Positions 5,505 through 40,609 of a stretch of 64,000 nucleotides of DNA are shown here, piece by piece. The notes under the pieces were generated by a model that was given only the letters and a program-made list of their open reading frames with translations, made no database searches and was not told the DNA's origin. A program made the position numbers and the translations under genes. Source of the DNA: Alphaproteobacteria bacterium (GTDB lineage: Bacteria > Pseudomonadota > Alphaproteobacteria > Bin95); assembly GCA_965205265.1 (NCBI GenBank), contig CBDBGH010000003.1, positions 2,560,001 through 2,624,000 on the forward strand, written 5' to 3'. Positions within the stretch are counted from its first letter, which is position 1. Every line of letters begins with the position of its first letter.

Positions 5505-5505
5505 G

Positions 5506-15498: not shown

Positions 15499-15542
15499 CG
15501 GGCTATCCTCGGTGTGGAAATTATCATTGTGTTTCAATGGGT

Positions 15543-16969: not shown

Positions 16970-16972
16970 CGT

Positions 16973-18351: not shown

Positions 18352-18794
18352 CGCTCCGCTCTCCGGTCCGCGAGGATCGCCGCGAGCGCGGCCTCGACCC
18401 GGGCCGTCGCGTCGGGCGCGCCGGCGGCTACGGCGCGGGCCGGCAGCAGCACCAGGCGATGGCGCGCCGCCACCCGGTCGAGCGCCGCTTCCAGCGCCGC
18501 GCCCCAGGCGCGCACGTCCTCCGCACCCGCGCCTTCGCTTGCGGCGCGGGTGGTGTAGGCCGCCGTGATCTCGGCAAGCCGGACGCCGGCGACGCGCGGC
18601 GGCTCTTCCACTCCGTATCGGAGCGTTGCCGCCGCGACCGCAGCCGCAATCGCGCCAGAGAGCAGAACCGCCGAGACCATGACCGGCCAGCTCCCAGGCC
18701 CGTCCCCCCGGCTCGGGGGCCGGGGCAGGCTCCCCCGATCCGGGATCCGGCCCATGTCAGCCTTCGCCGGCATCAGATCCGTCCGGTCGGGCAA
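18348..18794 (-). CDS. trbI: TrbI F-type pilus protein
   Basis: One TM, VAGVRLAEIT, LVLLPARAVAAGAPDAT; position upstream of trhF/traW. Start uncertain. Confidence 0.75.
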   Translation of the reverse strand: MPDRTDLMPAKADMGRIPDRGSLPRPPSRGDGPGSWPVMVSAVLLSGAIAAAVAAATLRYGVEEPPRVAGVRLAEITAAYTTRAASEGAGAEDVRAWGAALEAALDRVAARHRLVLLPARAVAAGAPDATARVEAALAAILADRRAER

Positions 18795-19398
18795 CCGCCG
18801 CGATGCGCCGCTGCCGCTCCTCGTCCGGCCCGGCGAGCGCCCGGAAGCGGGCGAGCCAGCCCTCGGCCGCCTTGTCCGGCGGGACCGAGCGGATGCGCCG
18901 CTTCAGCGGCGGGAAGGCGACTCCGGCGCCCGTGGGCGCGTTTCCGTCGAGCAGGTCGCGGCTCTCGGCCGCCGCCGCCATGCGGGCCACGAACCGCAAC
19001 AGCTCGGCCGGCTCCTCGTCCAGCACCGCATCGAGGCCGGCGGCCTCGCGCACCGCCGACGCGATCGCCGTCGCGAACCGCCCGGCGCGTTCGGCGGCGC
19101 GCTGCGAGTCGGGCCAGCCGCCCCGCAGCCAGGCCGACGGCGCGTCCGCGACCAGCGCGTGCAGCGCCAGCCGCCGCCGGTCCTCGTCTTCGAGCCCGTC
19201 CAGCGCCTCGACTTCCTCCGACACAATCACCGCATGGGCCGCGACCGAGTGGTAGCCGCGCATGCAGCCGCCCCGGCGGCAGGTGTTGGCCAGCACATGG
19301 GCCAGCGCCTCGAAGTCGATATCGGCAGCCGTGACATTCTCCGGGTCTGCCAGCCAGGCGAGCGGGCGTTGCCCGCCTCCGGTTGGTTTCCGCGTCAT
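18757..19398 (-). CDS. YfdR/YfbR-like HD-domain protein with degenerate HD motif
   Basis: DIDFEALAHVLANTCRRGG..YHSVAAH...ALVADAPSAW resembles DIAHAL..CRF.GH..YSVAQH..ALLHDA.EAY. ATG overlaps the traC stop (ATGA). Confidence 0.75.
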   Translation of the reverse strand: MTRKPTGGGQRPLAWLADPENVTAADIDFEALAHVLANTCRRGGCMRGYHSVAAHAVIVSEEVEALDGLEDEDRRRLALHALVADAPSAWLRGGWPDSQRAAERAGRFATAIASAVREAAGLDAVLDEEPAELLRFVARMAAAAESRDLLDGNAPTGAGVAFPPLKRRIRSVPPDKAAEGWLARFRALAGPDEERQRRIAAVARPDGSDAGEG

Positions 19399-22028: not shown

Positions 22029-22711
22029 CAGCGGAGCCTCCAGCCGGCGGGCTCCAGCACGACCCGGACGTGGCTGGCCTCGCGGTAGACGCCTTCGGCA
22101 TCGACGAAGGGCGCGATCCAGATGCGCGCGACGATCTCGTCGGTGCGCAGATCGTCCTCGGCGAGGTCGCCCGCGACGGGATCGTCCTGCTCCGGGTCGG
22201 GATCGGCCGGGAGGGCGCCGGCCGGATTCTCGGACCGGGACTTCTGCTTCCCGGGGAACTGCATGGACGTCGCCGCATCGGCGTCTCGAACCGCACTCCC
22301 GGAGGCCGAACGGCGCTCCTCCGGGGAACCCGCCGGTGCCGCCGCGGTCGTGTCCGACCCGGCGCCGTCGTCGTCATCCGCGCCATCGGCTCCGCCGAAC
22401 AGCCGTGCGAGCCAGCCGAAGGGATCGAACCCGGCGCCGCACGTCGCCGCGCAACCCGGCTCAGGTGGCGTCTCTGCCGCGGTGGCCCGCACCCGCCAGA
22501 GCGGCTCCTTCAGGACCGCGTTCCGGGCCGCGTCCGGGTCCGGCACCGCCGGATCGGCCGCCGCCACGCTGTCGCAGGTGCCGCCTTCTGCCAGCGGGCA
22601 CTGCCAGGATTCGCCGACATGCCCCGACGAGCAGCCGGCCAGCAGGAGCGCGGCGAACATTGCAACCGGGAGCGGCGCAGTGCGCCGGGCGCGTTTCGTG
22701 TCATGCGTCAT
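22028..22711 (-). CDS. traV: TraV lipoprotein
   Basis: Lipobox LLAGC, WQCPLAEGGTC, RT...RIWIAPFVDAEG; contains a long low-complexity insert. Confidence 0.92.
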   Translation of the reverse strand: MTHDTKRARRTAPLPVAMFAALLLAGCSSGHVGESWQCPLAEGGTCDSVAAADPAVPDPDAARNAVLKEPLWRVRATAAETPPEPGCAATCGAGFDPFGWLARLFGGADGADDDDGAGSDTTAAAPAGSPEERRSASGSAVRDADAATSMQFPGKQKSRSENPAGALPADPDPEQDDPVAGDLAEDDLRTDEIVARIWIAPFVDAEGVYREASHVRVVLEPAGWRLR

Positions 22712-22712
22712 G

Positions 22713-24026
22713 TCACTGTCCTTTCTGCGCGGTGCGGACCGGCGCGCGACCGTCGATGCGGGCGCCTTCGAGGAACACCAGCGTCACCTTCGTGCCGGCC
22801 TGGAGCTGGATCACCGGCTGGTACTGCTCGGCCCGGCGGATCATGTAGTCGGCGACCTTCTGACCGGCGGTCGACGCACCCGCCCCGAGGCCGGCCCGGC
22901 CAATGTCGGAGAGCGCGGTGTTGGCGACCGCGGCGCCCGAACCGGTCGCGACCGCCTGGGGCTGGAACGCCTGCGCGACGCCCTGGCCGATGCCGGAGAT
23001 CATGCCGGCGAGGAACGCCTTCTCGACCAGCGCGCCTTCGCGGCTCACCACCGGACCGCGCACGCCGGTCTTGCCGGAACCGGCGACGAAGCCCGCGACG
23101 TCGGTCTCGATCACCGTGCCGGACTCCGGTCCGGCGCAGGTCATGGTGCGGAAGCGGACATAGACCTTCTCCGAAGAGAGGTCGCCATGGGCGGCGCCCG
23201 TGACGGTGCAGCCGTCGACGTCGACAGCCAAGGCGGTCCCCTCCTCGGCCGCCGTCCAGGCGGGTCCCGTGATGCGCAGCAGCACCGGGCGGGGATCGCC
23301 CTGGGACGAGACCCCGGCCGAGGCGTCGACGCCCGCCAGCACCACGGCCTCGGCGTGGGCGCCCGCCGGCAGCCACACCGAGACCGGCTTGGCGACGGCG
23401 TCGGCGACCAGCTCCGGTCCGCTGCGGGGATCGGCCAACGACGATTGCGGCGCACCTTCCAGCTCGAAGGTCTCGATCATGCGTCCCGGCAGGGCCTGCC
23501 CCGGCCCCCGAGCCGGGGGCGCCTCCGGTTGCGCCTGTCCCCGGAACCAGGGGTCGTTCCCCGGCGCAGCGCCTGCCGCATTGCCCGGGGAGGCGGGCGG
23601 CTGGAGCCGGCGCTCCAGCTCGTCGATCACGGCCGCCTGGCGGTCGATCGTGCGGCGCGCGTCGACGCCGTCCTGCTCCAGCTTCGCGCGCAGCCGCTCG
23701 TTGTCGGCGCGCAGCGTCCGCGCGTCCTGCCGCAGCTCGCGAAGCTGCGTCTCGATCCCGCCGAGCCGGGCCTCGGAGCGCCGGGTCCAGACCTGCTCGG
23801 CGGCGTCCGGCCCGGCGATCTCCGCCTCGATGCCGCCCTGCGGCGCGCGCTCCTTGCCGCCGCCCATGCCGAGCCACGCGGCCACCGCGACCAGGAACAC
23901 CGCCCCAATGACCGAAAACAGCAACAGCTGGCGCCGCCGCACCGCCCCGGCGTCGCCGCCCGCCCCGGCCCACGACCTGTCCGGGCCCCCGGGCCGGGAG
24001 CCGGAGGCGTCCGCACGGGCGCTCAT
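22713..24026 (-). CDS. traB: TraB (VirB10-like)
   Basis: TM plus coiled coil, LPAG..A.VLAGVDA, GDLSSEKV, GVRGPVVSREG, AEQYQPVI. Confidence 0.95.
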   Translation of the reverse strand: MSARADASGSRPGGPDRSWAGAGGDAGAVRRRQLLLFSVIGAVFLVAVAAWLGMGGGKERAPQGGIEAEIAGPDAAEQVWTRRSEARLGGIETQLRELRQDARTLRADNERLRAKLEQDGVDARRTIDRQAAVIDELERRLQPPASPGNAAGAAPGNDPWFRGQAQPEAPPARGPGQALPGRMIETFELEGAPQSSLADPRSGPELVADAVAKPVSVWLPAGAHAEAVVLAGVDASAGVSSQGDPRPVLLRITGPAWTAAEEGTALAVDVDGCTVTGAAHGDLSSEKVYVRFRTMTCAGPESGTVIETDVAGFVAGSGKTGVRGPVVSREGALVEKAFLAGMISGIGQGVAQAFQPQAVATGSGAAVANTALSDIGRAGLGAGASTAGQKVADYMIRRAEQYQPVIQLQAGTKVTLVFLEGARIDGRAPVRTAQKGQ

Positions 24027-24817
24027 CGCGGCTCTCCCGCGGCGCTTTCCACGACCGCCACCGCGAGCCGTCCGCCCGACGGGCCGGTGCCGGGCGGCGC
24101 CAGCCACAGGGCGGCGAGACGGGCGCCGTCTCCGATGCGCCCGGCGTCCAGGGTCTCTTCGATGGTCCCGGCGAGGCCCGCGGCTGTGTCCGCATCTTCC
24201 GATGCCGAACCGGCGGCCTCGAAGACGAGCGCCGCGAAGCGCGGGCCCCGCCAGGTCTCGATGAGTGTCAAGCCGCCGACGGACAGGCCGTGCCGGGCCT
24301 CGATGCCGTAGCCGGGCAGCGGCTCGCGCCGGGCGACGGCGCGCACCAGCCGCACCAGCGCCGCGACGTGAGGACTGCCGGCGGCGGACGGCGACCCGAT
24401 GGCGCTGTCCGGCAGGGCCCCGGCGTTGCGGATCAGGATCTGCGCCGAGTCCCGGTCCGCCGGCGTCAGCGTCAGCCGGTAGGTGAACCCCTTCTCCGTG
24501 CCGATGAACAGGGTGACGGGATCCCCCGCCGCGTGTCCTGCCGCCGCCGGAACCGAGGGCCGCAGATAGAGGTCGCCCGACCGGGCGTCGTGCTCGACCG
24601 AGAAGCCGTCCGGCGCGCGAACCACCGTCGCGATCCGGTCGCCGGCCAGCGCGATGCGGTTCACATGCGTCGCGGAGATCTCCGCCGCGATCTCGCCATG
24701 GTCGGCCGCGTCGAGGATCTGCATCGCCAGCGCCGGAGCCGGCGCCGCGAGGCCGCCCAGGACCAGAATGTGCAGGGCAAGCAGCATCGCGCGCGGGCGC
24801 GATCCGATAATCGTCAT
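24023..24817 (-). CDS. traK: TraK (secretin-like)
   Basis: Signal peptide, ISATHVNRIALAGDRI, GDLYLRP, TLFIGTEKGFTY. Confidence 0.92.
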   Translation of the reverse strand: MTIIGSRPRAMLLALHILVLGGLAAPAPALAMQILDAADHGEIAAEISATHVNRIALAGDRIATVVRAPDGFSVEHDARSGDLYLRPSVPAAAGHAAGDPVTLFIGTEKGFTYRLTLTPADRDSAQILIRNAGALPDSAIGSPSAAGSPHVAALVRLVRAVARREPLPGYGIEARHGLSVGGLTLIETWRGPRFAALVFEAAGSASEDADTAAGLAGTIEETLDAGRIGDGARLAALWLAPPGTGPSGGRLAVAVVESAAGEPR

Positions 24818-25386
24818 TTTCCACTCTCCAGTTGTTCGAAGCGCAGGAGACCGATGCGCCCGGCGTCGATCCGGAAGACCAGCCGGTAGCGCCGGTCCTC
24901 GCGCGAGGACTCCTCGCGGCCGATCCAGGTCACGAGCTCACCCGCGATCTCGGCGCTGAGCCGCCCGGGGTCGGCCTCGATCTCCAGGGGGTAGAAGGCG
25001 CTCGCCATGTCGCGCCCGGCCAGGCGCGCGGCCTCGGCCTCGACCCAGGCGCCGATCGCGCCGCGCGCCGAGGCGTGGGCGAGACGCGCCGCCGCGAGGC
25101 GGACATGGGCCGCGTTCTCCGGGGTCAGCGTGAGCAGCGTCACCGCGACGGTGCGCGCCATGTCTTCGAGATACCGGGCGCCTGCCCGGTCGATGCCGAC
25201 TCCGCCGGCGCCCACTTCCCAGGCCGGACCGGCCGCCGCCGGCACCAGCACGGTGACGGTCTCGCGCCCGGCGAAGCTCATGGTGAGCGCCAGGTTCGCG
25301 GTCATCGACAGCACCAGCAGCGCCGCCAGGGCGAGGCGGACGTCCCGCACCCGGCGGATGGCGGAGTCCAGTTCGATGCGCTTCAT
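24814..25386 (-). CDS. traE: TraE
   Basis: N-terminal TM, TVLVP, YLEDMA, LTLTPEN; between traL and traK. Confidence 0.9.
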   Translation of the reverse strand: MKRIELDSAIRRVRDVRLALAALLVLSMTANLALTMSFAGRETVTVLVPAAAGPAWEVGAGGVGIDRAGARYLEDMARTVAVTLLTLTPENAAHVRLAAARLAHASARGAIGAWVEAEAARLAGRDMASAFYPLEIEADPGRLSAEIAGELVTWIGREESSREDRRYRLVFRIDAGRIGLLRFEQLESGK

Positions 25387-25396
25387 GCCACCCCCC

Positions 25397-25690
25397 TCAG
25401 CCGACGAAGCGCCGGAGGTGGCTCGGCGGCGTCGCCCTGAGCCGCAGCACGAAGTCCGGCAGGAACCAGTAGAGGGCGTAGCGCGCGATGTTGGCCCCGC
25501 CGCCGCGCTTGACCCGGCGCAGCAGCAGCCAGCCGCCGACGCCGGCAACGAGGCCGGGCACGAACTGGTTGGCCGCGAGTCCGAGCAGGGCCGGGCCCAT
25601 CAACGCGGCCGCCTCGTCGACGGTCCAGAACATCCAGCGCTCCGGATCGTCGAGCCGGCGCGGGATGGTGTGGCGGGCGGTGTCGTTCAT
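25397..25690 (-). CDS. traL: TraL
   Basis: IPRRLDDPERWMFWTVDE, YWFLP, TPPSHLRRFVG. Confidence 0.95.
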   Translation of the reverse strand: MNDTARHTIPRRLDDPERWMFWTVDEAAALMGPALLGLAANQFVPGLVAGVGGWLLLRRVKRGGGANIARYALYWFLPDFVLRLRATPPSHLRRFVG

Positions 25691-25707
25691 GGCTGCCGAC
25701 CTTCGGC

Positions 25708-26247
25708 TCAGACGATCGCCGTGCCGACGAGGCCGGTGACGATGCCGGTGCCGGCGCCCGCCGCGATGCCGACGCCGACCGCGCCCATGAGCTGCATCGC
25801 ATTGAAGCGCAGCACCGAGCCGACCAGTGCGGCGCCCACGGCGAGCGCGGCGGCGAGCTGGCCGCCGGTGCCGCCGACGATCCCTTCCACCGTGTCGAGC
25901 GGATCGTCGAACGTGGTGTCGGTGGTCGCGAACGCGGCGTCCGGTCCCGCGAGCAGCAGCGCGACGCCGAGCGCCGCCACCGCCGCGCAGCGCAGCGCGG
26001 GACCGAGGCCATCCCCCGGTCCGGGGCCTGCCCCGGATTCCGGCCCGGGGTCCACGGTCGAGTTGCGCTCGCGCTTCGCCGCCCACTCGTCGAGATGCTC
26101 GCGCCGGTAGCGCACCCGGCCGCCGAAGCGGTTGAACACCGGGCCCTCGCCGGTCACCCGGTAGCGTTTCAGGGTGCGGTGCGACAGCCGCAGATAGCGG
26201 GCCGCCTCGACCGTCGTGAAAAATATCTGTTCGTCGGCCACCGTCAT
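25708..26247 (-). CDS. traA: Fusion of an RdfS/excisionase-like HTH (aa ~1-68) to TraA propilin
   Basis: N-terminal TTVEAARYLRLSHRTLKRYRVTGEGPVFNRFGGRVRY...LDEW...STVDPG; then a signal-like h-region ending AFA; then TTDTTFDD...GG.GGQL with two hydrophobic helices. AAGGAG RBS; immediately upstream of traL. Confidence 0.85.
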   Translation of the reverse strand: MTVADEQIFFTTVEAARYLRLSHRTLKRYRVTGEGPVFNRFGGRVRYRREHLDEWAAKRERNSTVDPGPESGAGPGPGDGLGPALRCAAVAALGVALLLAGPDAAFATTDTTFDDPLDTVEGIVGGTGGQLAAALAVGAALVGSVLRFNAMQLMGAVGVGIAAGAGTGIVTGLVGTAIV

Positions 26248-26313
26248 TCTCCTTCGTCTCCGCCTGCCCCGGACGCCGATCCAGGACGCCGCGCTCTGCG
26301 GCCCGGTCCGCGA

Positions 26314-26370
26314 TTGAAACGGCGCGCCCGGCCCGCCGTAAGGGTCGATTTGCGAGTCGCAAAACCGACC
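26314..26370 (-). promoter_or_regulatory. Candidate activator box and promoter of the rdfS-traA/tra operon
   Basis: GGTCGG-N16-TCGACC (26343-26370) enclosing the perfect palindrome TTTGCGA-N-TCGCAAA, followed on the minus strand by CTTACG-N18-TTCAAT. Confidence 0.5.
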
Positions 26371-26569
26371 TCCCCAGGCGGTGCCTCACGGTGCCCTGCG
26401 GTGCCGGGAGGGCGATCGCCCGAGGACCGGCAGATCGCCCCGGACCGGTTCCGGGGACCGGGACAGGCGCGCCGGCACGCCGGCCGCAATGTTTCGGACG
26501 GGCGCGCGGGCAGCGGATTCGGGAACGGGGGAGCGGTTCGGGACCGCCTCGCGGAAACGCCGGACCGCG

Positions 26570-27372
26570 CTACGTCGCGGAGGGATCCGGCTTGCGCTGA
26601 CGGCGGCGCTTGCGGCGCGGCTCGAGGAACGCCGCGCTGTAGCCGCCGTCCCTCAGCCCCTTCGCCTTCTCGATGCGGCGCCTCGACTTCGAGCGCGGTC
26701 CCCCGTTGGGGTCCCAGGGCTCCACCGCGTCGGCCTCGAGAACGTCCAGCGCAATGTCCCGCTGCGACTTCTCCGCGCCGAGCGCGTCCAGGACCTTCAG
26801 AAGCTCGTCGTGCTCCTTGCCCGGACCCGGCGCCTCCGAGGAGGGGGCGGGCGTCCCGTCACCCGCCACAGGTCCTCGATCCGCCCGACCGCCGCCTCCA
26901 GCGGCAGGCTCAGCCCGAGCTTCGCCATGATCCCGTCGCCGGGGCCGAACGCGCGGCCCGACGGCACCAGGATCTGCAGCAGCGCGTTGCCGAGCTCCGC
27001 CTTGAGAACGAACCGGCCGTCGAGCAGCCTCAGCCCCTCGACCCGCGCTCCTGCTTCCGTCAGAAGCCCCAGCAGCGGCGCCGGGTCGGGCCAGGGGTCC
27101 GGGTCGGGCTCGCCGACGAGCATCGGGATGCCGGACCAGAAGGGCGAGCGCCAGACCTCCGCTTCGGGGTCCTCCCAGGCGAGCAGCGCCCACTCCGCTT
27201 CCGCCCGCAGGTCGGCCTCGGTCTGCACCCGGAGCGGGAACCCCGCATCCTCGAAGCGGGGCGGGGCGGCATGCACCGCCCATGCCTCGCGGTAGTCGGG
27301 GTTGCGCCGCATGTAGGCCCAGGCATGGCCCCCGAGGACCGCGTCCCGGTCCGCGCCCCTGACGCGGCTCAT
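26570..27372 (-). CDS. FseA-like (DUF6499 + DUF2285) transcriptional activator, split by a -1 frameshift near 26820-26860
   Basis: Frame 1: AWAYMRRNPDY...EW.L..EDP...PFW, stop at 26797. The -1 frame carries LLKVLDALGAEKSQRDIALDV...W...RSKSRRRIEKAKGLRDGGY, the DUF2285-type HTH. Confidence 0.75.
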
Positions 27373-27394
27373 CTCCCGGGTTGCCGCCGGGTGC

Positions 27395-30300
27395 CTACCA
27401 ACGGGCGGTAAACCCGAAGCCTATCCTGTGCTCGGGCGGGGTGTTGTCGTTGACGCTCTCGTTGCGCAGCGCCTCGACCTTGAACTCGAAGGTCCGCGGA
27501 CCCTGCCGCTCCGGCGTCAGACGCCAGCCGAGCGCGTAGTCGCGCCCCGTGTCCGACAGGCCCAGCGCGACCTCCGGCGTCCCCGTCAGCCGGCCGCCGA
27601 ACGCCGGCACGCCGTAGCCCAGCCGCGCCTCGAAGCGCCGCCGGTCCCAACTATTGTCGTTGGCCGCAAGCCCCGCCAGATCGTCGCGCGCGAGCAGCGC
27701 GTCCACGCCGCCCGCATCGGTCGCCCCCAGGGTCTGGCTCAGCGTCAGCTTCGGCCCGCGCTCCGTGTCCGGCCGCGGGTCCCAGGTCAGCCCGCCCGAG
27801 ACCCCGCGCTCGCTGAAGCCCGAGTCCTCGTGGGTCAGCAGGCCCCGCGCCTTGACCTCGGCCGACAGCCCGCGCTCCGGGTCGGACCACGCCACGCCGC
27901 CGCCGACCTCGGTGCCGAACCCGGTCTCGGCGTCGCCGCCGTCCACCCTGAGCCCGATCTCCGCGCTCGGCGTCAGCGTCGCGCCGCCGCCGACCGCGAA
28001 GGTCCGGCTGCCGTCCAGCACCAGCCGGAGCCGCGTCGCCTCGCCCTCGCTCGCCGCCATGCCCGGCACGGCATCGCTCTCCGTGCCGACCCACATCGCG
28101 TCGGACCGCACGTTGAGCGCGATGCCGTCCTCGCCGTCGAGCAGCCGCCCGGTGACGCCGACCGCGGCCATGCGCATCCGCACGTCGGTCTCCATGGCGC
28201 GCTCGCCCTCGGGCTTCAGCGTGAGCCTGCCCCAGCCCGCGCCGGCGAGGCCCGCCACCGACACCCGTTCGGTCAGGTCGAACTTGGCGTAGGGCCAGAC
28301 CCCGGTCAGCGCGCTCTCGACGTCGCCCTTGCCGGCCGGGCCGCCGTATGTGCCCTCGCCCAGGCTGTGCGAGACCATCACGCCCGCCAGCAGCCGGTCC
28401 CACTCGGCGTCGGCGCCGAGGAAGCCGGTCGTGACCGTGCCGTCCAGGTCGAGCCCGCCGGCCTCGCCCTCGAAGGCGGTGGTCGCGAACCGGCCCCACG
28501 CGGCGAAGCCCGGACCGCCCGCCTCCTTGCGGCCGGAGGCCGCGAGGTGGAACGACGTGCCGAGCAGGAACTGCTCCAGCGTCATGGTCCGCAGCCCGGT
28601 CCCGCCGCCGTGCGGGTCGCTCCCGTGCAGGCCGCGGTCGCCGGTGTACTGCCACCACGGCCGTTCGGCCCCGGCGCCGAGCGCCATTCCCTGCGCCGTG
28701 CCGTCGGACGTCCCGTCCGACGCCGCGCCGCCGGTGACGGCCTGTCCGCCGAGCGTGCCGTGCGAGCCGCCGGTCTCGGCGAACCGGCTGCCGAGCGCGT
28801 CCAGCGCCTGGCTGCCGACGGTGCGGCCCATCCGCACCAGCCACGCCCCCGGCATCGGGTCCGTGTTGGTTATCGTGCCGACCGCGTCGCCGTCGACCTT
28901 GCGCAGGCCGGAGGGGTTCGACAGCACGAGCAGCAGCTCCTCCTCGCCCTCGTCATGCGCGTCGTCCAGCACCGGCACCGACACCGTCTTCTCCGTCTCG
29001 CCCGGCGCGAACAGCAGCGTGCCCGAGGTCGGCGTGTAGTCGTAGCGCGGATGCGCCGTCCGGGCGACGGTCCGGTAGTCCACCGACGCCAGCGCGTCCG
29101 GCGCACGGTCCAGCGTCACCCTAAACGCGAGCACCGCGCCCGGCGCCTCGCGCACCCGCGCATCGGCCACCGACACGCCCGGCAGGGATCCCGGCGCCGC
29201 CTGCGGCTCCCGCGCCTTCTGCGGCTCCGCGAGCTTCTTGCGCAGCCACTTCAGGCCGCCGTTGTTGACCTTCGCCCGCGCCGGACCCCAGCCCTCTTCC
29301 TCCGGGTCGCCCAGGAAGAAGCGCGGCAGCACCGAGTTCGAGACGCCCGCGAGTCCGTCCACCTTGTCGGAGCCCGTCACCGTGCGCACCGTGTACGAGG
29401 CCCACTCCGCGCCGTCGAGCAGCCCGACCGCCGTGTCGTAGCGGCCCGTCGCCGCGGTCCCGTCGTCCGGGTCGTGGTAGATCGTGAACGAGACCGGCTC
29501 GGGCTCCGGCTCCGGTTCCGGCTCGGCGGGGGCCTCGTCGTCGTCGCGCACCGTCACCGCCGCGCTCGACGCCGCGCCCAGGTTGTAGCCGTCGCCGTGG
29601 TCCAGCGTCACCGTCACGCTGCCGTCCGGCTCGTCCGCGTCGTCGCCCGCCGTCGGCACCTCGATCGTCGCGCTCGTGGCGCCCCCGTCGATGGCGAGCG
29701 TCTTCGCGCCCTCATCGTCCGCCGCCACGAACTCGCCGTCCTCCGACACGCCGTAGGCGAGCGTCAGCCCGCCTTCCGGCGCCGCCTCCGAGAGCGTCAC
29801 CGTGAACGACGCCGCCGTGCCCTCGTCCACCGCCGGGCCGGCGGCAAGCGTGACATCCAGCGACCACGGCGAATGGCGCACCCGCACCGGCTCGCGCCCG
29901 TTGTAGTGCCGCCGGTCGAGCGCGTTCACCTCCACCAGCCAGTGCCGCGCCGCGTCGAAGTTCGGGATCTGCAGGCTGCAGCGGTCGTCCGCGCAGGTGC
30001 GGACGTCCACGATCTCGAAGCCCTTGTTCCGCGCGCCCCGCGACTTCCGCTTCGCCAGCCGCTTCGTGCCGCTCGCCCAGGCGACCGTGTAGTCGTCCCG
30101 CACCGACGGCACGCTCCAGGTCACCAGCCCGGTGTCCGAGACCGCCACGTTCTCCGGCACGCCGGTGAGGTTCAGCACCTCGCCCGGCGCCGGCGTGTGC
30201 CGCGCCGCCGCCGCCGGCAGGCCCTTGATCGGCCGCTCCGCATTGTTCACCTCGACGAGGTAGTGGTAGCGGGCGTCGAAGTCCTCGATCCGGGTCTCGC

Positions 30301-33300
30301 AGCGCCCCTCGGAGCACTGGAACTCGTGGACCGTCGCCTGGCCGGTATTCACGAAGCCCAGGTCCATGTACGACGGCGCCACCTCGTCCCAGTTCCATTC
30401 CACCCAGTACTTGATCCGGCCGTCGGGCGCCGTCGCCTTGTCCAGGGTCCAGGTCACCACCCCGGTGTCCGACACCGCGAGGTTGCGCGGCACGCGGTTC
30501 GGATCCCGCGGCGGCAGCGGCACGAATTCCGTCTTGTCGTCGTCGACGACGGTCAGCATGGCCCCCGCGCTCGGGAACCCGCCGACGCTGGCCCGGAAGT
30601 ACACCCTCTCGTCGCCCTCCTCGGCCGTGTCGTTCGTCGGCGTCACGGTGAGGTCGATCGACCCGCTCGCAGCGCCGGCCGGGATGGCGAACTCGAAGGT
30701 GGTCGGACAGGACTTGCCGGCGGACGCAATGCCGAGGTCGGTGCCGTAGGTGGCGGTATCGCCCTCCCGGCCGCAGGCCAGGATCACGTCGGCCGCGGTC
30801 GCCAGCGTCCCGCCGACCAGGGTCGCGGTCGCCGTCACCGTCCGCGCGCCGCCGTCCTCGGCGATGCGCGACGGGCTGAGACTGAGCTCGATGCCGGTGA
30901 CCACGGCCGGCGGCGTGACGGCGGGGCAGTTCTGCGTCGCGGCGACCACCGCCAGCTCGACCTTCTGGCCGTTGGTCCAGGTCAGGCCGGAGGGGTCCCA
31001 GTCGACTCTGCTGGCTGCCCCCGTAAAGGGGTTCCAGCCGGGCGTCTTCGTGAACGCCGTGCCGTCCACGCAGAACTTGTAGCTGCCCGTCGCGCTGCCC
31101 GTCAGATCCCCGTAGGCTATGCTCAGGCCGCTGCCGACGAGAAAGACGCCGGTGAGCGCCCGCGTCGCGCCCTGGTCCGTCATGCTGCTGCTGGTGATCG
31201 AGCCAATGCCCGTGTCAGCACTCCAGCCCCGTTGGAGCGTACCCCCCACCGTCAGCGTTGCCGACCAGACGGGCATGACGGACGCCGCGTCATCGTCGTC
31301 TTCCACCGCCACCGAGGTGCTTGTCGTCGCGCCCAGCGTGTAGCCCGTGCCGGCGTTCAGCGTCACCGTCACGGTGCCGTTGGCCTCGTCGTCCCCGTCG
31401 TCCACCGTGGGGACGTTGTAGGTCCCGGTCGTGGCGCCGCCGGCGATGTCCAGCGTCTTGGCGCCCTCGTTGCCCGAGGCCACGTAGTCGTCGTCCACCC
31501 CCTCCGACACCGTCAGGTCGATGGTGAGGCCGCTCGCCGGCGCCGCGCTCGACAGCGTCACCGTGAAGCTCGCGTCCGTGCCCTCCGTCACCGGAGAGGT
31601 GCCCGCCGCGATGGTGGCGGTCGGCAGCACGCCAGTCAGCGTCCCCGTGATCTCGCTCTGGGCCTGGGGCGCCTCCAACTGGTCGACGGCGCTCACCCGG
31701 ACGTCATACGCCGTATCCGCCGTCAGGCCCGTCAGCTGCACCTCCGTGTCGGGGTCCGGACCCCTGTTGGTCGTCTGGCGGCTGCTGTCGTAGCTCTGCC
31801 CGGCGCTCTTCCACTCGATGATGTAGCTGTCGAAGGTGACGCCGGTCGGCGCGTCCCAGTCCACGTCGAGCTTGGTCGGCTCGCCGTCGACCGCGGCCAC
31901 GGTCAGGTTCGGGATCGCCGGCAGGTCGTTGTCCTGCACCGTCACCGCCGCGCTCGACGGACTGCCCAGGGTGTAGCCCGGCGCCGACAGGAGCGTCACC
32001 GACACGGGGCCGTCCGTCTCGTCGTTGCCGTCGTCCACCGTGGCGACGCTGTAGTCCTTGGTCGTCTCGCCCGCGGCGAAGGACACCGTCTTCACGCCCT
32101 GGTCGGCCGCCGCCACGAAATCGCTGCCCGGCGCGTCCGCCACGCTGATGCTGAAGTTGAGGCCGGCAGCCGGCGCCGCCGTCGTCAGCGTCACCGTGAA
32201 CACCGCCGCCGTCCCCTCCGTCACCGGCGAGGTCTTCGCCGCGATCGTCGCGGAGTTCGCCGCATGCGTCCGCGTTCCCGCGACCTCGCTCCGGGCCGAG
32301 ACGGAATGATCACTGGCGACGACGGTGACCTGAACGTCATACGCGGTGTCGGCCGTCAGGCCCGTGATCTGCGCGCTCGTTTGAGGGTCGCCTGGTCTAG
32401 GGTTAGTTTGGATTTGACGGGTATTGACGTACGTCTGGCCGCCGGTCTTCCACCGGACGACGTAATTCAAGGTATCCGCCACCGCGTCCCACGACACGTC
32501 GAGCTTGTCCGTCGCGCCCATGACCGGGGTGACGACCAGGTTCGGCACCGCCGGCAGCGCCGCCGAGGTGGTGCCCGACGTCGAATCCGACCACGCCCCG
32601 TCGCCCTCGGCGTTCGTCGCCCGCACCTGCACCTGGTAGGACGTGCCCGCATCCAGGCTGCCGATCATCGCCGTCAGGCCCGTCTGGTCCTGCGGGCCGT
32701 CGTCCCAGGTCCCGCTCGTGCCCTCCCGGTAGCGCAGGTCGTAGCCCGTGATCGCCGGGCCGGCGTTCGACGGCGCGGTCCACTCCACGTCCAGGCTCGA
32801 CGACGAACCCGTCGTCGGCCCCACCGTGGGCGCCGCGGGCTTGCCCGGCGCCTCGGTGTCCACGTCCGTCACCGCCACCGTCACGGTCGCCGTGTCGGTC
32901 GCCGTGCCGTCGCTCGCCCGCACCGTCAGGGTGAAGGCGGACGCCGGGTCGGCCGGGTCCGTGAAACTCTCGTAGTTCTCGCCGCTGCCGGTATAGGTGA
33001 TCGCGCCTGTGGATGCGCCGATGGCGAACACGCTGCCGGTGTTGCCCGCCGTGATGCTGTAGGTGATCGAGTCGCCCGTGTCCGCATCCGTCGCCGTCAC
33101 CGTGCCCACCGACACCGCCGTGGTGCTGCCGTCCGCGTTCTCCGCCAGGCTGAAGCTGTAGCTCGCCGCGTCGAACGCGGGCGCGGTGTTGGTCGTCGAC
33201 GAGACCGTGATGTCGAACTCCAGCGTCGCGGTGTCGCCGTCCTCGTCGGTCGCCGTGTAGGTGTAGGTGGTCGCGCTCTGCGCCGCCGTCGGCGTGCCCG

Positions 33301-36300
33301 TGAGCATGCGCGTCCCGGCGTCGAAGCCCAGCCCCGCCGGCGGCGCCGGCGACAGGCTGTAGCGCACCGTCCCGTTGCCGCCCGTCGCCGCGGGCAGCGC
33401 CAGGTCCGATATCACCGAGTTCTGGGTGTAGGTCTGGTCGTCGATCGACACCGAGCTGCCGAACGCGGGCGACGAATTCGCCACCAGCGTCGCCGTCATC
33501 CAGACGTGGTCCGCGGTGTTTTCGGCCTGCAGCGCGTGCCGGAGCGAGGCCGTGTCCCCGGCCGCGGCGCCCGGCTGGGCAGTCACGGTGACCGTCTGGG
33601 CCACGTTCCAGTTCGTCGCGTCGTATTCGAGACGGCTCGGTGACACGCTGACCTTGTCGCTGAGCGTCGTGGACCCCTGGGACTGGAACGCAAAGACAGT
33701 GACATGTTCGTTTGTGTTTCCGCCCCCAGGAGCCCGTTTCAGCTTGACCGTATAGGTGATGGACTTGCCAACCGGCACGCTGAGCGCGGTCTTCGACAGG
33801 ACGATCCCCTGCGCGGCGTCCGCCGTCGACGTCGTGCCCGTCCCGGAGTCCGACCACGAGCTGTCGCCCTCGTCGTTGGTCGCGCGCACCTGCACCTGGT
33901 AGGATGTGCCCGCCGTGAGGCTGGGGATCTTCGCCGTGAGGCCGGTCTGGTCCTGCGGGCCGTTCTCCCAGGTCCCGCTCGTGCCCTCCCGGTAGCGCAG
34001 GTCGTAGCTCGCGATCGCCGGGCCGGCGTTCGACGGCGCCGTCCAGGTCACGTCGAGGCTCGTCGTCGAACTCGCCGTCGGCGTCACCGTCGGCGCGGCC
34101 GGCTTGCCCGGCGCCTCGGTGTTGTCGTCTGTCACCGCCACCGTCACGGTCGCCGTGTCGGTCGCCGTGCCGTCGCTCGCCTGCACCGTCAGGGTGAAGG
34201 CCGAGGCCGGGTCGGCCGGGTCGGTGAAGCTCTCGTAGTTCTCGCCGCTGCCGGTATAGGTGATCGCGCCGGTGGAGGAGATCGCGAACACGCTGCCCGT
34301 GTTGCCCGCGGTGATGCTGTAGCTCACCGTGTCGCCGGTGTCGGCATCGGTCGCCGATACCGTGCCCACCGACACCGCGTTCGTGCTGCCGTCCGCGTTC
34401 TCCGCCAGGGTGAAGCTGTAGCTCGCCGAACCGAACGCGGGCGCCCGGTTCGACGGCGCCGCCACCGCGATGGTGAAGGTCAGCTCGGCCTTGTCGCCGT
34501 GGCTGTCCGTCGCCCGCCAGATGTAGCTCACCGCCGACTGCGTCGCCGTCGGCGTGCCGGTGATCTTGCGGTTCGTCGAGTCGTAGCTCAGCCCCGCCGG
34601 CAGCGTCCCCACCAGCGCATACTCCACCGTGCCGTCGCCGCCCGACGCCGTCGGCAGCGTCAGCTCCGCGATCTGCGCGTTCTGCGTATAGGACTGGTCG
34701 TCGATGGTGCTCCCGCCGAATGACGGCGCCGTCCCCTCGATGACCGTGATGCTGAAACTCACCGTCGCCTTCTCGCGGTCGGTGTCCTCGGCCTGCCAGG
34801 TTTCGCTCGTCGCCACCTGCCGCGCCGTCGGCGTGCCCTTCAGCGTGTAGGTGCCGCCCGACCGCTCGACCGTCAGCCCGGTCGGCAGCGGCAGCGTCGA
34901 GATGGCGTGACTGAGCGGCGCGTTGCCGCCCGTCGCCAGGGGCAGCGTCACCGGCGTCATCATGGAATCCTTGGTCAGCACCAGGTCGTCGATGCCCGTG
35001 CCGAAGGTCGGCGTCGCGTTCGCCACCACCTCCAGCGAGAAGGTCAGCTCGGCCTTGTCGCCGTTGTTGTCGGTCGCCACCAGCGTGTAGGTCGAGGCAG
35101 ACTTCACCGCCGTCGGCGTGCCCACCACCCAGACGTTGCTGTTCTGGAACTGCAGGCCGGTCGGCAGGGTTTCCTTGACGCTGTAGGTCACCGGGCTGTC
35201 GCCGCCGGTCGCCAGGGGGAAGAAGGTCGACCGGTTGTACTTGTTGACCGCGAACACGAGGTCCGGGATCGACGCCCCGTCCGGGAAGGACGGCACCGCG
35301 TTGGCGGTCACCGCGATGGTGAAGGTCAGCGTGTCGGAATCCGGGTTGGTCGCGTCGCTGTCCGTCACCTTGTAGGTGTAGGTCGTGGCGTTCTGCGTCG
35401 TCGTCGGCTTGCCGGTGAGCTTGCGGGTCGCGGGATTGAAGCTCAGGCCCGCCGGCGGGTTCGGGGAGATGCTGTAGATCAGCGCGCCGTCGCCGCCGGT
35501 CGCCGCCGGCAGCGTCAGGTCCACCGCGCGGAGTTGCGGAAAGGACTGGGCCGCAACGGTCTCGGAGCCGAAGTCCGGCACCAGGTCGGTCACGCCGTCG
35601 TCATCGGTCAATGTCAGGGCGGCGCACACAAACTGCGTGTTGGCCACGCCATTGAAATTACCAATGTCGCACTTCCGCGTGAGCAGTCCGGAATTCGACA
35701 CGTCACTCGGATACGCATGCACCACGAGCGTTTTGTTCACCCCGACACGGTCGTTGTTGCGCGCCGTGATCGTCACCGTGCCGGTGCTCGTGGTCGCGCC
35801 CGCCGCGATCGTCAGCGTCTTGTTCGTGCTGAAGGAGAAATCCGTGCCTTCGACCAGCTCAGTCCCCGCATGGTCTGGATCGGAAGCGGCCTTGACGGTT
35901 ATCCGGACTTCCCGGGACACCGCAGCGCTGAGCGATGCAGTGACCGTGGCCGAGCCGCCGTTCTCGGAGATCGACGATGAACTCAACGCCAGCGTCAGGG
36001 TCGGCCGGGTCCCCGACACCGCGATGGTGAAGGTCAGCTCGTCCGAGTCCGGATCGCTGGCATCGCTGTCCGTCACCTTCCAGGTGTAGGTCACCGCCGA
36101 CTGCGCCTCCGTCGGCGTGCCGGTGATCTGCCGGGTGTTGGCGTTGTAGCTCAGCCCCGCCGGCAGCGTCCCCACCAGCTCGTAGTTCAATGCACCGTCG
36201 CCGCCCGTCGCCGCCGGCAGGGTCAGCGGCGTGATCTGCGTGTTCCGGGTGTAGGACTGGTTGGAGATGGTGTTGGTGCCGAACGTCGGCACTTCGTCGA

Positions 36301-38178
36301 TCACCGTCCCCTTCGCCGTGCCGTTGATGCGAAGCTTGAAGGAATTGGTCCACGTCAACCACGTTCCGGACGTCGCGCCCCGGTTTCGATACAGGTTGCC
36401 GTCGCCGAGGCTCCAGCCAGCCAAACCGGTCTCGGCGTCGCTCGCGGTGACATCTACGCCCAAAATTCCGGTGTCGATGTCAACAACCACAAAGTAGGGG
36501 GTGTTCGCGGTCAGATCGAGGCCCGGGTGGGTGTAGGTGCGCGCGCCTGCCGTCGACGACCCCGTCAACGTGCCCAACACGGCACCCGGCTGATCTCCCG
36601 TCGCGCTGTTGACTGTTACGGTAACGCTGGTGGCATTGGAGAACCCGGCGAATTCGACGCTGGTCAGCCTGTAGCCGTCCGGGTTGCTGCCGGTGGTGAA
36701 TGCCAGAGCCTGATCGAATTGTGACAGATTAGCCGCGACATTGGCATTGGTCTCATCATGGTTGCTGACCAGCACGGAGTCGCTTGCGCCACTCGGCCCG
36801 GAGAAGGTTTGCGGCCCGGAGAAGACTTGCGGCGCGGCGCGGAATTGTGGCCTGTCGTCGTCTCTCACCGTCACCGACGCGCGCTTTGCCGTGCCGAGCG
36901 TGTAGCCGGTGCCGCCGGCCAGCGTCACCGTCACGCTGCCGTCGGGCTCGTCGTCCCCGTCGCCCGTCGTGACGACACGGTAGGTCCCGGTCGTGGCGCC
37001 CCCGGCGATGGCGAGCGTCTTCGCACCCTCGTCGGCCGAGGCCACGAAATCGCCGTTGGCGGACTCGCTCACGGTGAGGTTCACCGTCAGACCGGCGGCC
37101 GGCGCCACACTCGACAGCGTCACCGTGAACTGCGCCGCCGTCCCCTCCGTCACCGGGGAGGTCCCGGCCGCGATGGTGGCGGCCGGCTTGCCCGGCGCGT
37201 CGTCGTCCACGTCGGTCACGCCCACCGTCACGGTCGCCTCGGTGTAGGCCGCGCCGTCGCTCGCCCGCACGCGCAGGCTGTAGGCCCGCGCCGGGGTCGC
37301 GAAGCTCTCGAAATCCTCGCCGCGCCCGCGGTAGGTGATCGCCCCGCTCGAGGAGATGTCGAACACGTTGCCCGTGTTCCCGGACTCGATGCTGTAGGCG
37401 AGCGTGTCGCCGGCGTCCGCATCCGTCGCCGAGACCGTGCCCACCGACACCGGCGTCGCGCTGCCGTCCGCATTCTCCGCCAGCGTGAAGCGGTAGCTCG
37501 CTGCGCCGAAGGCGGGCGCGCTGTTCGGCGCGGACGCCGCCGCGCCGGTCCGCGTCCCGGTGACCTCGCCGTGGGCCAGCTTCCAGTAGCCGCTGTCGAA
37601 CACCCGGACCTGGACGTCGTACACGGTGTCGGGATCGAGGCCGTTGATCCGCGCGCTCGTCGGATGCCTGCCTTCCTCGACCGTGACGACGACGCCGCGG
37701 CGATGGTGGTAGGCCTGGCTGCCGGTCTTGTACCAGACGGAATAGATGAAGGCGTCGTCGACCTCGTCCCAGGTGACGTCGAGCCTGTCTCCGGAGCCCG
37801 GGACCGCGCTCACCGTCAGGTTCGGCACCGCCGGAACGTCCCGGGCCTGCGCGGGAAGTGCGGCGAGCGCACCCAGCGACAGGAGGAGGAAGGCCCCGGC
37901 GAGGGCGCGCCGGGCTCCGGACCGGAGCCCGGCGAAGACGGGAAGGAGGAAGCGGGAAGCGGGCCCGCCGCGCGGCGGTCGGGACGAACCCGAAAGGGCT
38001 AGGTCAGAGGAGCAGTCCCGGCGTGGGGACGGATGAAGGCGAGAGGCAAGACACAGGAGCCCGCTCGGCGCTCGGCGCTCGGCGCTCGGCGCTCGGCGCT
38101 CGGCGCTAAATTATATACGAGGCAACGAAACACCGATGTCAAGCTCTTGTCCGGAAAACGCAAACGCTCCATGACCAT
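27395..38178 (-). CDS. Giant repeat adhesin/autotransporter-like protein (FN3, cadherin, Calx-beta, putative Ig repeats, C-terminal beta-barrel); upstream ATG currently out of frame
   Basis: 3477-aa ORF from GTG 37828. The frame stays open upstream to 38110 and encodes signal peptide RRALAGAFLLLSLGALAALPAQA. Ends in barrel-type GFGFTARW. ATG 38178/38172 is out of frame across the heptamer tract. Confidence 0.88.
32590..34445 (-). repeat. Near-identical internal duplication of a cadherin+FN3 module (~33855-34445 and ~32590-33185)
   Basis: Both copies encode ENADGST.AVSVGTV...ITYTGSGENYESFTDPADPASAFTLTV...EAPGKPAAPTV...YDLRYREGTSGTW with long identical DNA runs; a third cadherin copy lies at ~37190-37520. 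Confidence 0.9.
38063..38107. repeat. Heptanucleotide simple sequence repeat (GCTCGGC)6 + GCT
   Basis: Read directly: six perfect units at 38063-38104. Confidence 0.97.
38110..38142 (-). promoter_or_regulatory. Possible sigma70-like promoter upstream of the repeat tract
   Basis: Minus strand TTGACA...TATATAAT, but spacing is 19-21 nt, which is non-optimal. Confidence 0.35.
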
Positions 38179-38539
38179 ACCCCGAATCCAATCCCCGCAT
38201 GCGCGGGCACGATAGACCGGTGGAATGGAAAACGCCAGATGCGGCCGCTGTCAAGCGCCGCCATTCGCCGCCGGGTCCGCCACGCGGACAGTCGGTCGCA
38301 AGCCTGCGGACACTCCGGTCATCCATCGCGACATAACGCCGGCGCCGTGACGGTCCGCAAATTCGCTGATAGGGTGCCGCCGGGTATCGTGGTCGGCGTC
38401 GGGAGCGCTCGACGTGGGATCGTTCCTCGGGGGGTGTGCTGGCGGACTGCCAGATCGACAAGACCCCTCGTTGGGGTGAATCCTCTTACAGTATGCTTAC
38501 GCTGGCCCGATTCCAACAGTAGCCGGTCGGGCCGCGAAC

Positions 38540-40609
38540 ATGTCACAAGATACTGAAAATACATCGAAAAAGTCCGTTTCCGGCGGTGGAATACGCATCG
38601 GAGTGGATGTCGGCGGCACCTTCACCGACTTCTCCGCCGTCAACGACCGGACCGGCGAAACCCATGTCTTCAAGCGCCCCTCGACGCCGGACGACCCGAG
38701 CCGCGCCATCCTGGAGGGCATCCGGGAGATGGCGGACGCCTGCGGGATCGCCCTCGACGAGGTTTCCCGGCTCGCCCACGGCACGACGGTCGCAACCAAT
38801 GCGCTGCTCCAGGGCAAGGGCGGCCGGGTGGCGCTGGTCACCACCGAAGGCTTCCGGGACCTGCTGGAGATCGGCCGGCAGGTCCGCCCGCACATGTACG
38901 ATTTCCGCCGCAGCTTTCCGGCCCCGCCCGTGCCGGCGGAGCGGCGCTTCGAGCTTGCCGAGCGCATGGATGCGGCGGGCGAGCCGGTGCGCGCGCCGAC
39001 GGAGGCGGATATCGAGGCGGCCGTGGAGGCGGTGCGCGCGAGCGGCGCGGAGGCCTGCGCCGTCTGCTTCCTGTTCGCCTATCTGAACGGGGCGCATGAG
39101 CGGGCGCTGGCGGATGCGCTCAGCGCCGCGCTGCCGGCGCTGCATGTCTCGCTCTCCTCCGAAGTGCAGCCGGAGTTCCGGGAGTTCGAACGGTTCTCGA
39201 CCACGGCCGTGAACGCCTATCTGCAATCGGTCATGGAGCGTTACCTCGGCCGGCTGGAAGAAGGCCTTTCAGCCGTAGCGCCCCGCGCCAGCCTGGGCAT
39301 CAACCAGTCGAGCGGCGGGCTGATGTCGGCGGCGCGCGCCCGCGCCTTCCCCGTCCGCACCGCGCTTTCGGGGCCGGCGGCGGGCGTCGTCGGCGCGGTC
39401 CACGCCGCCCGCAGCGCCGGCTTCGGCGACCTCGTCACGCTCGACATGGGCGGCACCAGCGCGGATATGGCGCTCATCCGGGGCGGCGAGGCGGACATTG
39501 CCTATGAGCGCGCCGTGGCGGGCTTTCCCATCCGCCTGCCGCAGATCGACATTGCGACCATCGGGGCGGGCGGCGGCTCCATCGCCTGGTTCGACCGCGA
39601 CGGGCTGATGAAGGTCGGCCCCGGGAGCGCCGGCGCCGACCCCGGCCCCGCCTGCTACGGGCGCGGCAACACGGAGCCGACCGTCACCGACGCGAACCTG
39701 CTGCTTGGGCGGCTCAGCCCGCGCGGCCTGCTGGACGGCGGCATGCGGCTCGACGAAGGCAGGGCCCGCGCCGCCTTCGAACCGGCGGCCCGGCGCCTCG
39801 GCCTTTCGGTCGAGCGCACGGCGGAAGGCGTGCTCGACATCGTGGCCGCCAACATGATCCGCGCGATCCGCACGGTCTCGGTGGAGCGCGGCCACGACCC
39901 GCGCGGCTACGTGCTGGCCGCCTTCGGCGGGGCCGGGCCGCTGCATGCGCGCGATGTGGCCGCCGGTCTCGGTATCGGCAAGATCCTGGTGCCGCCCGCG
40001 CCCGGCATCGTGTGCGCGGAGGGCCTGCTGGTCTCGGACCTCCGCGAGACCTTCACCCGCAGCGAGCGCATCGCCGTCTCGCGCAAGGCGTTTGACCGCA
40101 TCGCGGCCATTCTGGAAGAGCTGGAAGAACAGGCCCGGCTCTGGTTCGCAGGCGAACCGGGCGCGGAAGGCCGGCGGACCGAAGCATCGCTCGACATGCG
40201 CCATGTCGGGCAGAATTTCGAGCTCGCCGTGGCGTTGCCGGACAGGCTGGACGAGCTCGGCGACCGGTTCCTCGATGCGCATGAGTCCGCCTACGGCTTC
40301 CGCAATCCGGAGGACCCGGTCGAAATCGTCAATCTGCGCCTGACGGCGAAGGCCCGCCTCTACCGGGCGCCCGAAACGGAATTGCCGCCTGCCGACGGGC
40401 CGCCCGCGCCGAGGGAGCGCCGGCCCGTCCGCTTCGCGGGACAGGAGTTCCCGGAGACACCCGTTTACGACCGCGCCCGGCTCGGGGCCGGCGCCCTTGT
40501 CGCCGGGCCGGCCGTCATCGAACAACTCGACGCCACCGCCGTCGTCTGGCCGGGCGACGCGGCCGCGGTGGACGCCCACGGCAACCTCACCGTCCGGATC
40601 GCACCATGA
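38540..40609 (+). CDS. Hydantoinase/oxoprolinase subunit A
   Basis: IGVDVGGTFTD, HGTTVATNA, SGPAAG, DMGGTS, IGAGGGSI, GPGSAGADPGPACY. Confidence 0.95.
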   Translation: MSQDTENTSKKSVSGGGIRIGVDVGGTFTDFSAVNDRTGETHVFKRPSTPDDPSRAILEGIREMADACGIALDEVSRLAHGTTVATNALLQGKGGRVALVTTEGFRDLLEIGRQVRPHMYDFRRSFPAPPVPAERRFELAERMDAAGEPVRAPTEADIEAAVEAVRASGAEACAVCFLFAYLNGAHERALADALSAALPALHVSLSSEVQPEFREFERFSTTAVNAYLQSVMERYLGRLEEGLSAVAPRASLGINQSSGGLMSAARARAFPVRTALSGPAAGVVGAVHAARSAGFGDLVTLDMGGTSADMALIRGGEADIAYERAVAGFPIRLPQIDIATIGAGGGSIAWFDRDGLMKVGPGSAGADPGPACYGRGNTEPTVTDANLLLGRLSPRGLLDGGMRLDEGRARAAFEPAARRLGLSVERTAEGVLDIVAANMIRAIRTVSVERGHDPRGYVLAAFGGAGPLHARDVAAGLGIGKILVPPAPGIVCAEGLLVSDLRETFTRSERIAVSRKAFDRIAAILEELEEQARLWFAGEPGAEGRRTEASLDMRHVGQNFELAVALPDRLDELGDRFLDAHESAYGFRNPEDPVEIVNLRLTAKARLYRAPETELPPADGPPAPRERRPVRFAGQEFPETPVYDRARLGAGALVAGPAVIEQLDATAVVWPGDAAAVDAHGNLTVRIAP

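Follow-up and report, generated by a model that had tools for sequence, protein, structure and literature searches.

A giant autotransporter gene with a promoter repeat and an FseA-like activator in two reading frames precede an F-type transfer operon in an alphaproteobacterium

We describe here a locus within a 64-kb window (that is, the whole stretch of DNA that was analysed) of contig CBDBGH010000003.1 from an alphaproteobacterium, in which genes for a giant surface adhesin, an FseA-like activator and a conjugative transfer apparatus follow one another; every feature of this adhesin-activator-tra module in the window lies on the minus strand. The window is part of a 5.46-Mb contig, and the genome comprises 5.7 Mb at about 72% G+C. 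Control of many mobile elements in proteobacteria is attributed to activators of the FseA type, and to our knowledge such control has been worked out only for the quorum-sensing input and +1 frameshift of one Mesorhizobium island. An original prediction for this locus, made from the sequence alone, held that a repeat-based switch of the adhesin gene also governs the co-transcribed activator and, through it, the transfer genes. The analysis presented here suggests that the whole is a variant of the FseA-type control circuit of integrative conjugative elements (ICEs) that has not been seen before.

Results

The adhesin gene (27395–38110) comprises about 3570 open codons (about 10.7 kb) and extends from 38110 down to a TAG at 27397–27395. 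Pfam recognises FN3, He_PIG, cadherin and Calx-beta repeats in its passenger, and the last 531 residues have no match in Pfam or NCBIfam. We aligned this C-terminal region with 13 relatives and built an AlphaFold model (mean predicted local distance difference test score, pLDDT, 63; 77–91 over residues 110–350). Since the 17 best Foldseek matches of the model are all autotransporter translocator beta-domains, headed by BrkA (3qq2, E 9.6e-10, TMt 0.80) and followed by Hbp, EspP, NalP, EstA and AIDA-I, the adhesin is, by its predicted fold, a type Va autotransporter with a C-terminal translocator barrel at about 27398–28500. Its role is plausibly that of a mating or aggregation adhesin. Long internal repeats in the passenger are 81–83% identical (32558–33445 with 33821–34705, and 34459–34709 with 36013–36272), and contigs from public runs show many joints between passenger repeats, which may be assembly ambiguity or recombining modules.

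The activator gene begins with an ATG at 27372–27370, on the same strand as the adhesin and separated from its stop codon by a gap of 22 nt (27373–27394). The original prediction had described this junction and had seen no obvious terminator or promoter in it, and both statements hold. A sigma-70-type promoter scan of 25500–39000 gave 0 matches (0.4 expected). Terminator-like sites in the same interval number 3 against 4.2 expected in shuffles, with none in the gap and a weak 5-bp stem at 27029–27015 within the activator open reading frame (ORF), and the RNA of 27330–27470 folds no more stably than its shuffles (z 0.70). Across 14 loci, the window included, the gap between adhesin and activator measures 15–26 nt in six, 49 nt in one and 87 nt in five, and the two longest measure 245 and about 570 nt; a run of four or more T is present in none of the 14. 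With such short, terminator-free gaps, an operon is the simplest account, and adhesin and activator are probably co-transcribed.

Two autotransporter barrels elsewhere in the genome (C3:382897–384267 and C3:2802562–2803932; 67% amino acid and 82% nucleotide identity) both keep the stop–22 nt–ATG junction and the first 25–45 codons of an FseA-like gene before they break off, and they look like remnants of further adhesin-activator modules. In some relatives, a small ORF stands between the two genes (L032:12546–12800 on the minus strand; residues 1–70 of P0040; L058:1778–2190) and is either DUF2285-like (24 bits in P0040, below the cut-off) or DUF6499-like. These ORFs are candidate antiactivators in the manner of QseM; the window has none of them.

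The same arrangement is found in other genomes. Related loci were drawn from three sources, namely 14 loci fetched out of 36 matches, 8 loci from an even sampling of 400 genomes of the class, and 6 loci from a species-wide scan (L062 was left out as the same record as G010:C3), and they represent at least 13 genomes and several families of the class. In 22 of the 28 loci, the gene immediately before the FseA-like gene encodes an autotransporter barrel (13/14, the one miss being a fragment, then 6/8 and 3/6), and the order of adhesin, activator and HTH_17/tra genes recurs in those relatives, including other families of the class. Recurrence of this synteny was the check that the prediction had set for itself, and the outcome is in its favour. 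From family to family, gene order and strand stay the same, and the length of the passenger ranges between 788 and about 3500 aa. We regard the adhesin-activator-tra module as very probably a conserved functional unit.

The activator is not the single ORF that the prediction had assumed. Frame A (26797–27372) contributes 191 codons with a DUF6499-type N-terminus and a middle domain; it contains the motif HAWAYMRRN, and its match to PF20109 reaches 17.4 bits, below the cut-off of 23.8. A linker and the DUF2285 helix-turn-helix DNA-binding domain (PF10074, 30.3 bits, cut-off 26.4; the single DUF2285 match in the whole genome) are encoded in frame B (26570–26844), which is −1 relative to frame A, and a frame plot of G+C at third codon positions (GC3) switches frame at about 26800. 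RovC is the only solved chain matched by both halves: residues 7–81 of 6xz5_A match frame A (E 7e-5), and residues 191–248 align weakly with frame B (E 0.072).

The −1 relation between the two halves is found in 25 of 27 related loci (15/17 by tblastn frames and 10/10 by reading translations), with a decayed copy (L052) and an irregular one (L064) as the exceptions. L052 was considered as a possible single-ORF activator and rejected, as it is a decayed copy with an extra shift. Of the best 120 database relatives, 109 are at most 198 aa long; among 7 of the 11 longer proteins there is no fused single-ORF activator, and all are frame-0 read-through or N-terminal extensions. An assembly error was likewise rejected as the cause of the break, for contigs from the three runs X1, X3 and X4 cover 26800–26860 with 0 differences and the break is conserved.

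We propose that the frame break is a programmed −1 ribosomal slip at C_CCU (26845–26842), where the frame-A codon CCT (26844–26842) is preceded by C, in the linker ahead of DUF2285 at about codon 177. C_CCT stands at the equivalent place in 17 of 20 DNA homologues; of the other three, one has C_CCC, one of low G+C has A_AAA, and in the third the site could not be assigned. A translation start of its own for the DUF2285 part is judged less likely than a slip, since frame B contains no conserved start codon close to the domain. In the 60 nt that follow the slip site, 16 homologues (e.g., L008:1405–1512) carry 3.7 runs of at least three G, compared to 1.65 per 60 nt in the gene body. These runs could stimulate the slip, whether as a G-quadruplex or as a Shine-Dalgarno-like element, or they could just encode a Gly/Arg-rich linker.

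Beyond the activator, an FseA-box-like inverted repeat (26343–26370; AGGTCG-N18-CGACCC, 30 bp) lies 96 nt upstream of the ATG of the next gene, and relatives feature 28-bp versions whose arms covary. No copy of the box (arms GGTCG/CGACC), which would have pointed to a feedback loop, was found at the adhesin promoter. The gene behind the inverted repeat (25708–26247) joins an HTH_17 domain of the excisionase/RdfS-like type and a TraA/TrbC-like pilin precursor, with a signal peptide and two hydrophobic helices, in one ORF. The same fusion is present in L058 (3184–3870) and L059 (11054–11623) at about 78% identity; 9/9 other relatives encode HTH_17 and pilin as separate ORFs, in different frames, with the pilin starting from an ATG of its own. 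A protein that fuses a recombination directionality factor (RDF) to a pilin would be unusual. The tra operon follows the activator, as predicted, from this HTH_17 gene through TraL to TraC and on to the type IV coupling protein (T4CP) and the TrwC relaxase.

At the opposite end of the adhesin gene, a promoter-like element (38110–38142) consists of TTGACA (38142–38137), a 21-nt spacer and TATAAT (38115–38110), and the TAA within this box (38113) is the upstream end of the adhesin frame. TTGACA-N19-23-TATAAT occurs just 4 times in the whole 5.7-Mb genome; the consensus scan missed the element because its spacer exceeds 18 nt. The heptanucleotide GCGCCGA begins 3 nt past TATAAT and is repeated 6.6 times (38062–38107; Tandem Repeats Finder score 92, 100% matches), which places a perfect tandem array, with a unit of 7 nt that is not divisible by 3, at the promoter and 5' end of the adhesin gene. 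A leader and signal-peptide region (37844–38061; ...RRALAGAFLLLSLGALAALPAQA) that is open in the adhesin frame comes next, and its signal-peptide-like stretch ends in AQA. The Logan contigs of public runs break inside the repeat and at 27389.

Only two other GCGCCGA arrays are present in the genome, both outside the window (C3:818765–818841 and C3:2759871–2759996, with 11 and 18 copies), and both lie 3 nt past TTGACA-N20/21-TATAAT in the same layout. One heads a paralogous 1694-aa autotransporter with a homologous leader, and the other heads a lipoprotein gene whose ATG is 290 nt downstream of the repeat. Counting the window copy, the genome has a small group of surface-protein genes that are headed by this repeat.

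Among 11 adhesin 5' ends from relatives, 6 carry a repeat at the equivalent place: GAGCGCC x6.9; ATTGCCGG x11.2; and GGTCGCCG or TCGCCGGG x4.8, 10.8, 12.9 and 13.9. Two further related loci, both in one metagenome-assembled genome (MAG), have 25 and 30 copies. Units in the relatives are thus 7 or 8 nt long and of three different kinds, in 4.8–30 copies after TATAAT. Two copies of the element in one genome differ by six units (4.8 vs 10.8 copies), and their flanks are 97.6% (1500 nt) and 99.8% (2914 nt) identical. Given the common position after TATAAT and the differences in copy number, the repeat is therefore a conserved, unstable feature, and the expectation that it is real and variable in length was correct. 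Of the 6 relatives with a repeat, 5 have an in-frame ATG 0–25 nt past the repeat, which is therefore 5' leader rather than coding sequence in those loci; the sixth (G008) has a TTG within the repeat unit. The repeat most likely tunes transcription or initiation of the adhesin-activator unit, and the layout of the family speaks against a translational switch in the window copy.

Finally, the genome was searched for components of quorum sensing. The LuxI family (PF00765) had no match, where the positive control also matched nowhere, and the LuxR autoinducer-binding family (PF03472) had none, where the control matched in E. coli; the genome likewise contains no second, QseM-like DUF2285 gene. The statement that traR, traI and qseM are not visible here is in line with these results, weakly so for traI, as the positive control of that search had no match either.

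Discussion

We propose that the locus is the regulatory front end of an F-type ICE, and we assign this explanation as a whole a probability of roughly 0.5. A promoter with a hypermutable 7-nt repeat at its start site would head the adhesin gene, and the adhesin and the FseA-like activator, with its RovC-type fold, would form one transcription unit. The DUF2285 DNA-binding domain would be made only after the −1 slip at C_CCU, and the rarity of this slip would act as a second throttle. Full-length activator would then bind the FseA-box-like inverted repeat and switch on the HTH_17-pilin gene and the tra operon. The repeat-tuned adhesin promoter would take the place of the quorum-sensing promoter (traI2-msi172-msi171) of ICEMlSymR7A, and it would be chiefly the adhesin-displaying cells that prepare for transfer. 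That the state of the repeat gates transfer is a tentative and rather doubtful part of this proposal. Slightly more doubtful is that the arrangement amounts to a heritable stochastic licence, in which only adhesin-ON cells would transcribe the activator, the rare −1 slip would filter the signal before ICE excision and pilus building, and a contingency locus would replace quorum sensing.

Several observations weigh against this proposal. In the window, the paralogues and the relatives, the spacer between TTGACA and TATAAT measures 20–23 nt, which is too long for a standard sigma-70 promoter, and no repeat is present in 5 of the 11 adhesin 5' ends from relatives, two of these five being disrupted. 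Six of the 28 loci are without the adhesin (in L059, a recombinase-like ORF occupies its place; the others are fragments or have short flanks), and the synteny counts are not independent, because many of the related loci are copies inside two genomes, G010 and G016. At the proposed slip site, the window copy has no stable RNA structure on the 3' side (z 0.23 vs shuffles), and the enrichment in G-runs, modest in relatives, is absent from it. Lastly, the window adhesin has no in-frame ATG, GTG or TTG between the TAA at 38113 and the signal peptide, and with no canonical in-frame start this copy may be untranslated or decaying.

Adhesin and activator could also be linked without being coupled, which would likewise tell against our proposal. 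The activator would then have its own promoter in the 3' end of the adhesin gene or in the gap, the adhesin would be a conserved accessory gene for mating or colonisation, and the repeat would have no say over transfer. There is room for separate control of the activator in those relatives whose gaps measure 87, 245, 413 or about 570 nt, and the small DUF2285-like or DUF6499-like ORFs lie in some of these gaps. Two further F-type tra clusters in the genome are without an adhesin or FseA-like gene. By contrast, a promoter would not fit into the 15–26-nt gaps of 6 of the 14 loci without overlapping coding sequence, the consensus scan gave no promoter match, and order and strand are kept across families despite the wide variation of the passenger. 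We consider linkage without coupling to be possible but doubtful.

The absent start codon is also relevant to a second alternative, in which the window holds a decaying, inactive copy of the element and the cascade does not operate in this genome, whatever the relatives do. The window copy is missing a stretch of about 38 nt in which the paralogue at C3:818765 carries its in-frame TTG and GTG, and the genome contains the two truncated adhesin/FseA stubs and many mobile elements (58 integrase-family matches). No integrase was found within the window, the nearest being 12 kb to the left (C3:2546545–2548172). However, an uninterrupted frame of 3570 codons with a GC3 of 0.93 argues against old decay, all examined tra genes are intact, and the HTH_17-pilin fusion, which resembles a defect at first sight, is kept in L058 and L059. 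An inactive copy is unlikely in our judgement.

The translational switch of the original prediction, in which the repeat is coding behind an ATG at 38178 or 38172 and an out-of-frame allele yields a 10-kb untranslated mRNA that Rho terminates before the activator, is highly improbable: GGGG does lie 7 nt upstream of ATG 38172, the frame is open through the repeat and would join the adhesin frame after +1 or −2 units (ATG 38178 to GTG 37828 is 350 nt, remainder 2), the paralogue has an equivalent ATG, likewise out of frame, with GGAG upstream, and the window copy has no other canonical start, but ATG 38172 lies upstream of the conserved TATAAT box and, as the start, would give a protein with over 110 residues ahead of its signal-peptide cleavage site, paralogue substitutions in that stretch are mostly non-synonymous, and the start codons of the repeat-bearing relatives and of the paralogous lipoprotein are placed past the repeat or, in G008, within its unit. 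The Rho step fares no better. In the adhesin mRNA, G outnumbers C (median C/G 0.9, with 0.76 in the 3' third), and C/G exceeds 1.3 in just 8% of its windows; these ratios are similar to or below those of other genes and are not decisive for Rho sites. Given this richness in G, we find no support for Rho polarity and no need to invoke it, and Rho is very unlikely to be the link between adhesin and activator. Of the original prediction, the junction, the synteny, the repeat and the lack of LuxI/LuxR matches have stood, and the Rho-polarity step has not.

The proposed circuit has its counterpart in ICEMlSymR7A, which, in those portions of the two reports that we draw on here, combines TraR/TraI quorum sensing with FseA (made from msi172-msi171), QseM and RdfS (PMC4755241, PMC10359603). 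There, FseA shares a transcript with the gene that precedes it, and a frameshift limits it (PMC4755241), the slip is +1 at UUUC beside a WGL motif after DUF6499 (PMC4755241, PMC10359603), and the FseA box consists of two hexamers with a spacer of 15–16 nt (PMC10359603). As far as these portions describe the Mesorhizobium system, the window locus resembles it in having an activator with DUF6499 and DUF2285 domains (the DUF6499 match here being below the cut-off), in placing the activator gene, encoded in two frames, downstream of another gene on the same strand, and in having an inverted repeat ahead of a transfer operon whose first gene is HTH_17/RdfS-like. Unlike that system, the break here is −1 at C_CCU and about 110 codons beyond the WGL-type region, frame A crosses its WALLAW region without a break, and a giant adhesin occupies the upstream position that belongs to traI2 there. 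Further differences are the lack of a LuxI/LuxR match and of a second DUF2285 gene in this genome, a type IV secretion system (T4SS) of the F-type, and an RDF domain fused to a pilin. Judged from sequence, the C_CCU site is new in both place and direction relative to the known +1 site of FseA.

Other systems share single parts of this arrangement. RovC is a type VI secretion activator of Yersinia that is encoded by a single ORF and controls the type VI secretion system (T6SS); it matches both halves of the window activator, which, unlike RovC, is split between two frames and lies in a conjugative element. In Haemophilus influenzae, 7-bp promoter repeats control hmw1A and hmw2A, the adhesin genes of a mucosal pathogen. 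The window locus similarly has a heptanucleotide repeat of varying copy number that separates the promoter of a very large secreted adhesin gene from its start codon; it differs in that the repeat lies 3 nt past the −10 box, in an environmental alphaproteobacterium of 72% G+C, with a conjugative-element activator downstream. The PrgB aggregation substance is encoded in the pheromone-induced conjugation operon of the Enterococcus plasmid pCF10, and there, too, a surface adhesin lies upstream of conjugation genes with which it is co-expressed. In contrast to the window locus, PrgB/pCF10 is a Gram-positive system under peptide-pheromone control, with no repeat switch, FseA-type activator or frameshift.

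Within the FseA family, the locus points to a different input, with a giant adhesin gene and hypervariable promoter repeat at the place of traI2, and to a different recoding, with a proposed −1 slip at C_CCU ahead of the DNA-binding domain; several families share both features. If the coupling is true, contingency loci, so far tied to surface variation, would in addition determine how often genes move horizontally, donors would be a subset already selected for being adhesive, and annotation pipelines that call a 190-aa orphan ORF here would miss the activator. If the licence is true as well, an entire family of conjugative elements in alphaproteobacteria would tie donor competence to cell-cell adhesion. 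A search of the available literature library found no paper joining DUF2285 with 'autotransporter' or 'adhesin', and a single paper there mentions DUF6499.

Transfer module and flanking genes

The genes behind the HTH_17-pilin ORF were identified by Pfam. A block of F-type T4SS genes (19395–25690) comprises TraL (25397–25690), TraE (24814–25548), TraK (24023–24817), TraB (22713–about 24100), TraV (22028–22711) and TraC (19395–22028). The rest of the transfer module lies within 822–19400 and contains TrbI-F, an S26 peptidase, TraW, a single-strand-binding protein (SSB), TraU, TrbC, TraN, TraH and TraG, in addition to the T4CP (5506–8082), the TrwC relaxase (2433–5888) and an HTH_36 protein (822–1337). 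The full F-type (MPF-F) set of TraL, E, K, B, V, C, W, U, N, H and G is present along with T4CP and relaxase. The SSB gene (16541–16969, minus strand) is located inside the tra operon between traW and traU.

A tRNA-like gene with a 4-base anticodon (gacg) was found by ARAGORN at 58993–59085 on the plus strand; it could be a pseudo-tRNA or the remnant of an integration site. In relatives, P4-type integrases lie 3–5 kb upstream of the adhesin, and toxin-antitoxin genes are also found near it. Defence genes are also present in relatives, immediately upstream of the adhesin promoter: G008 carries a pair of SMODS and bacterial HORMA genes (L037:3479–4878) like those of cyclic oligonucleotide-based antiphage signalling systems (CBASS), and G010 carries a DruA-like gene (L025:101–814).

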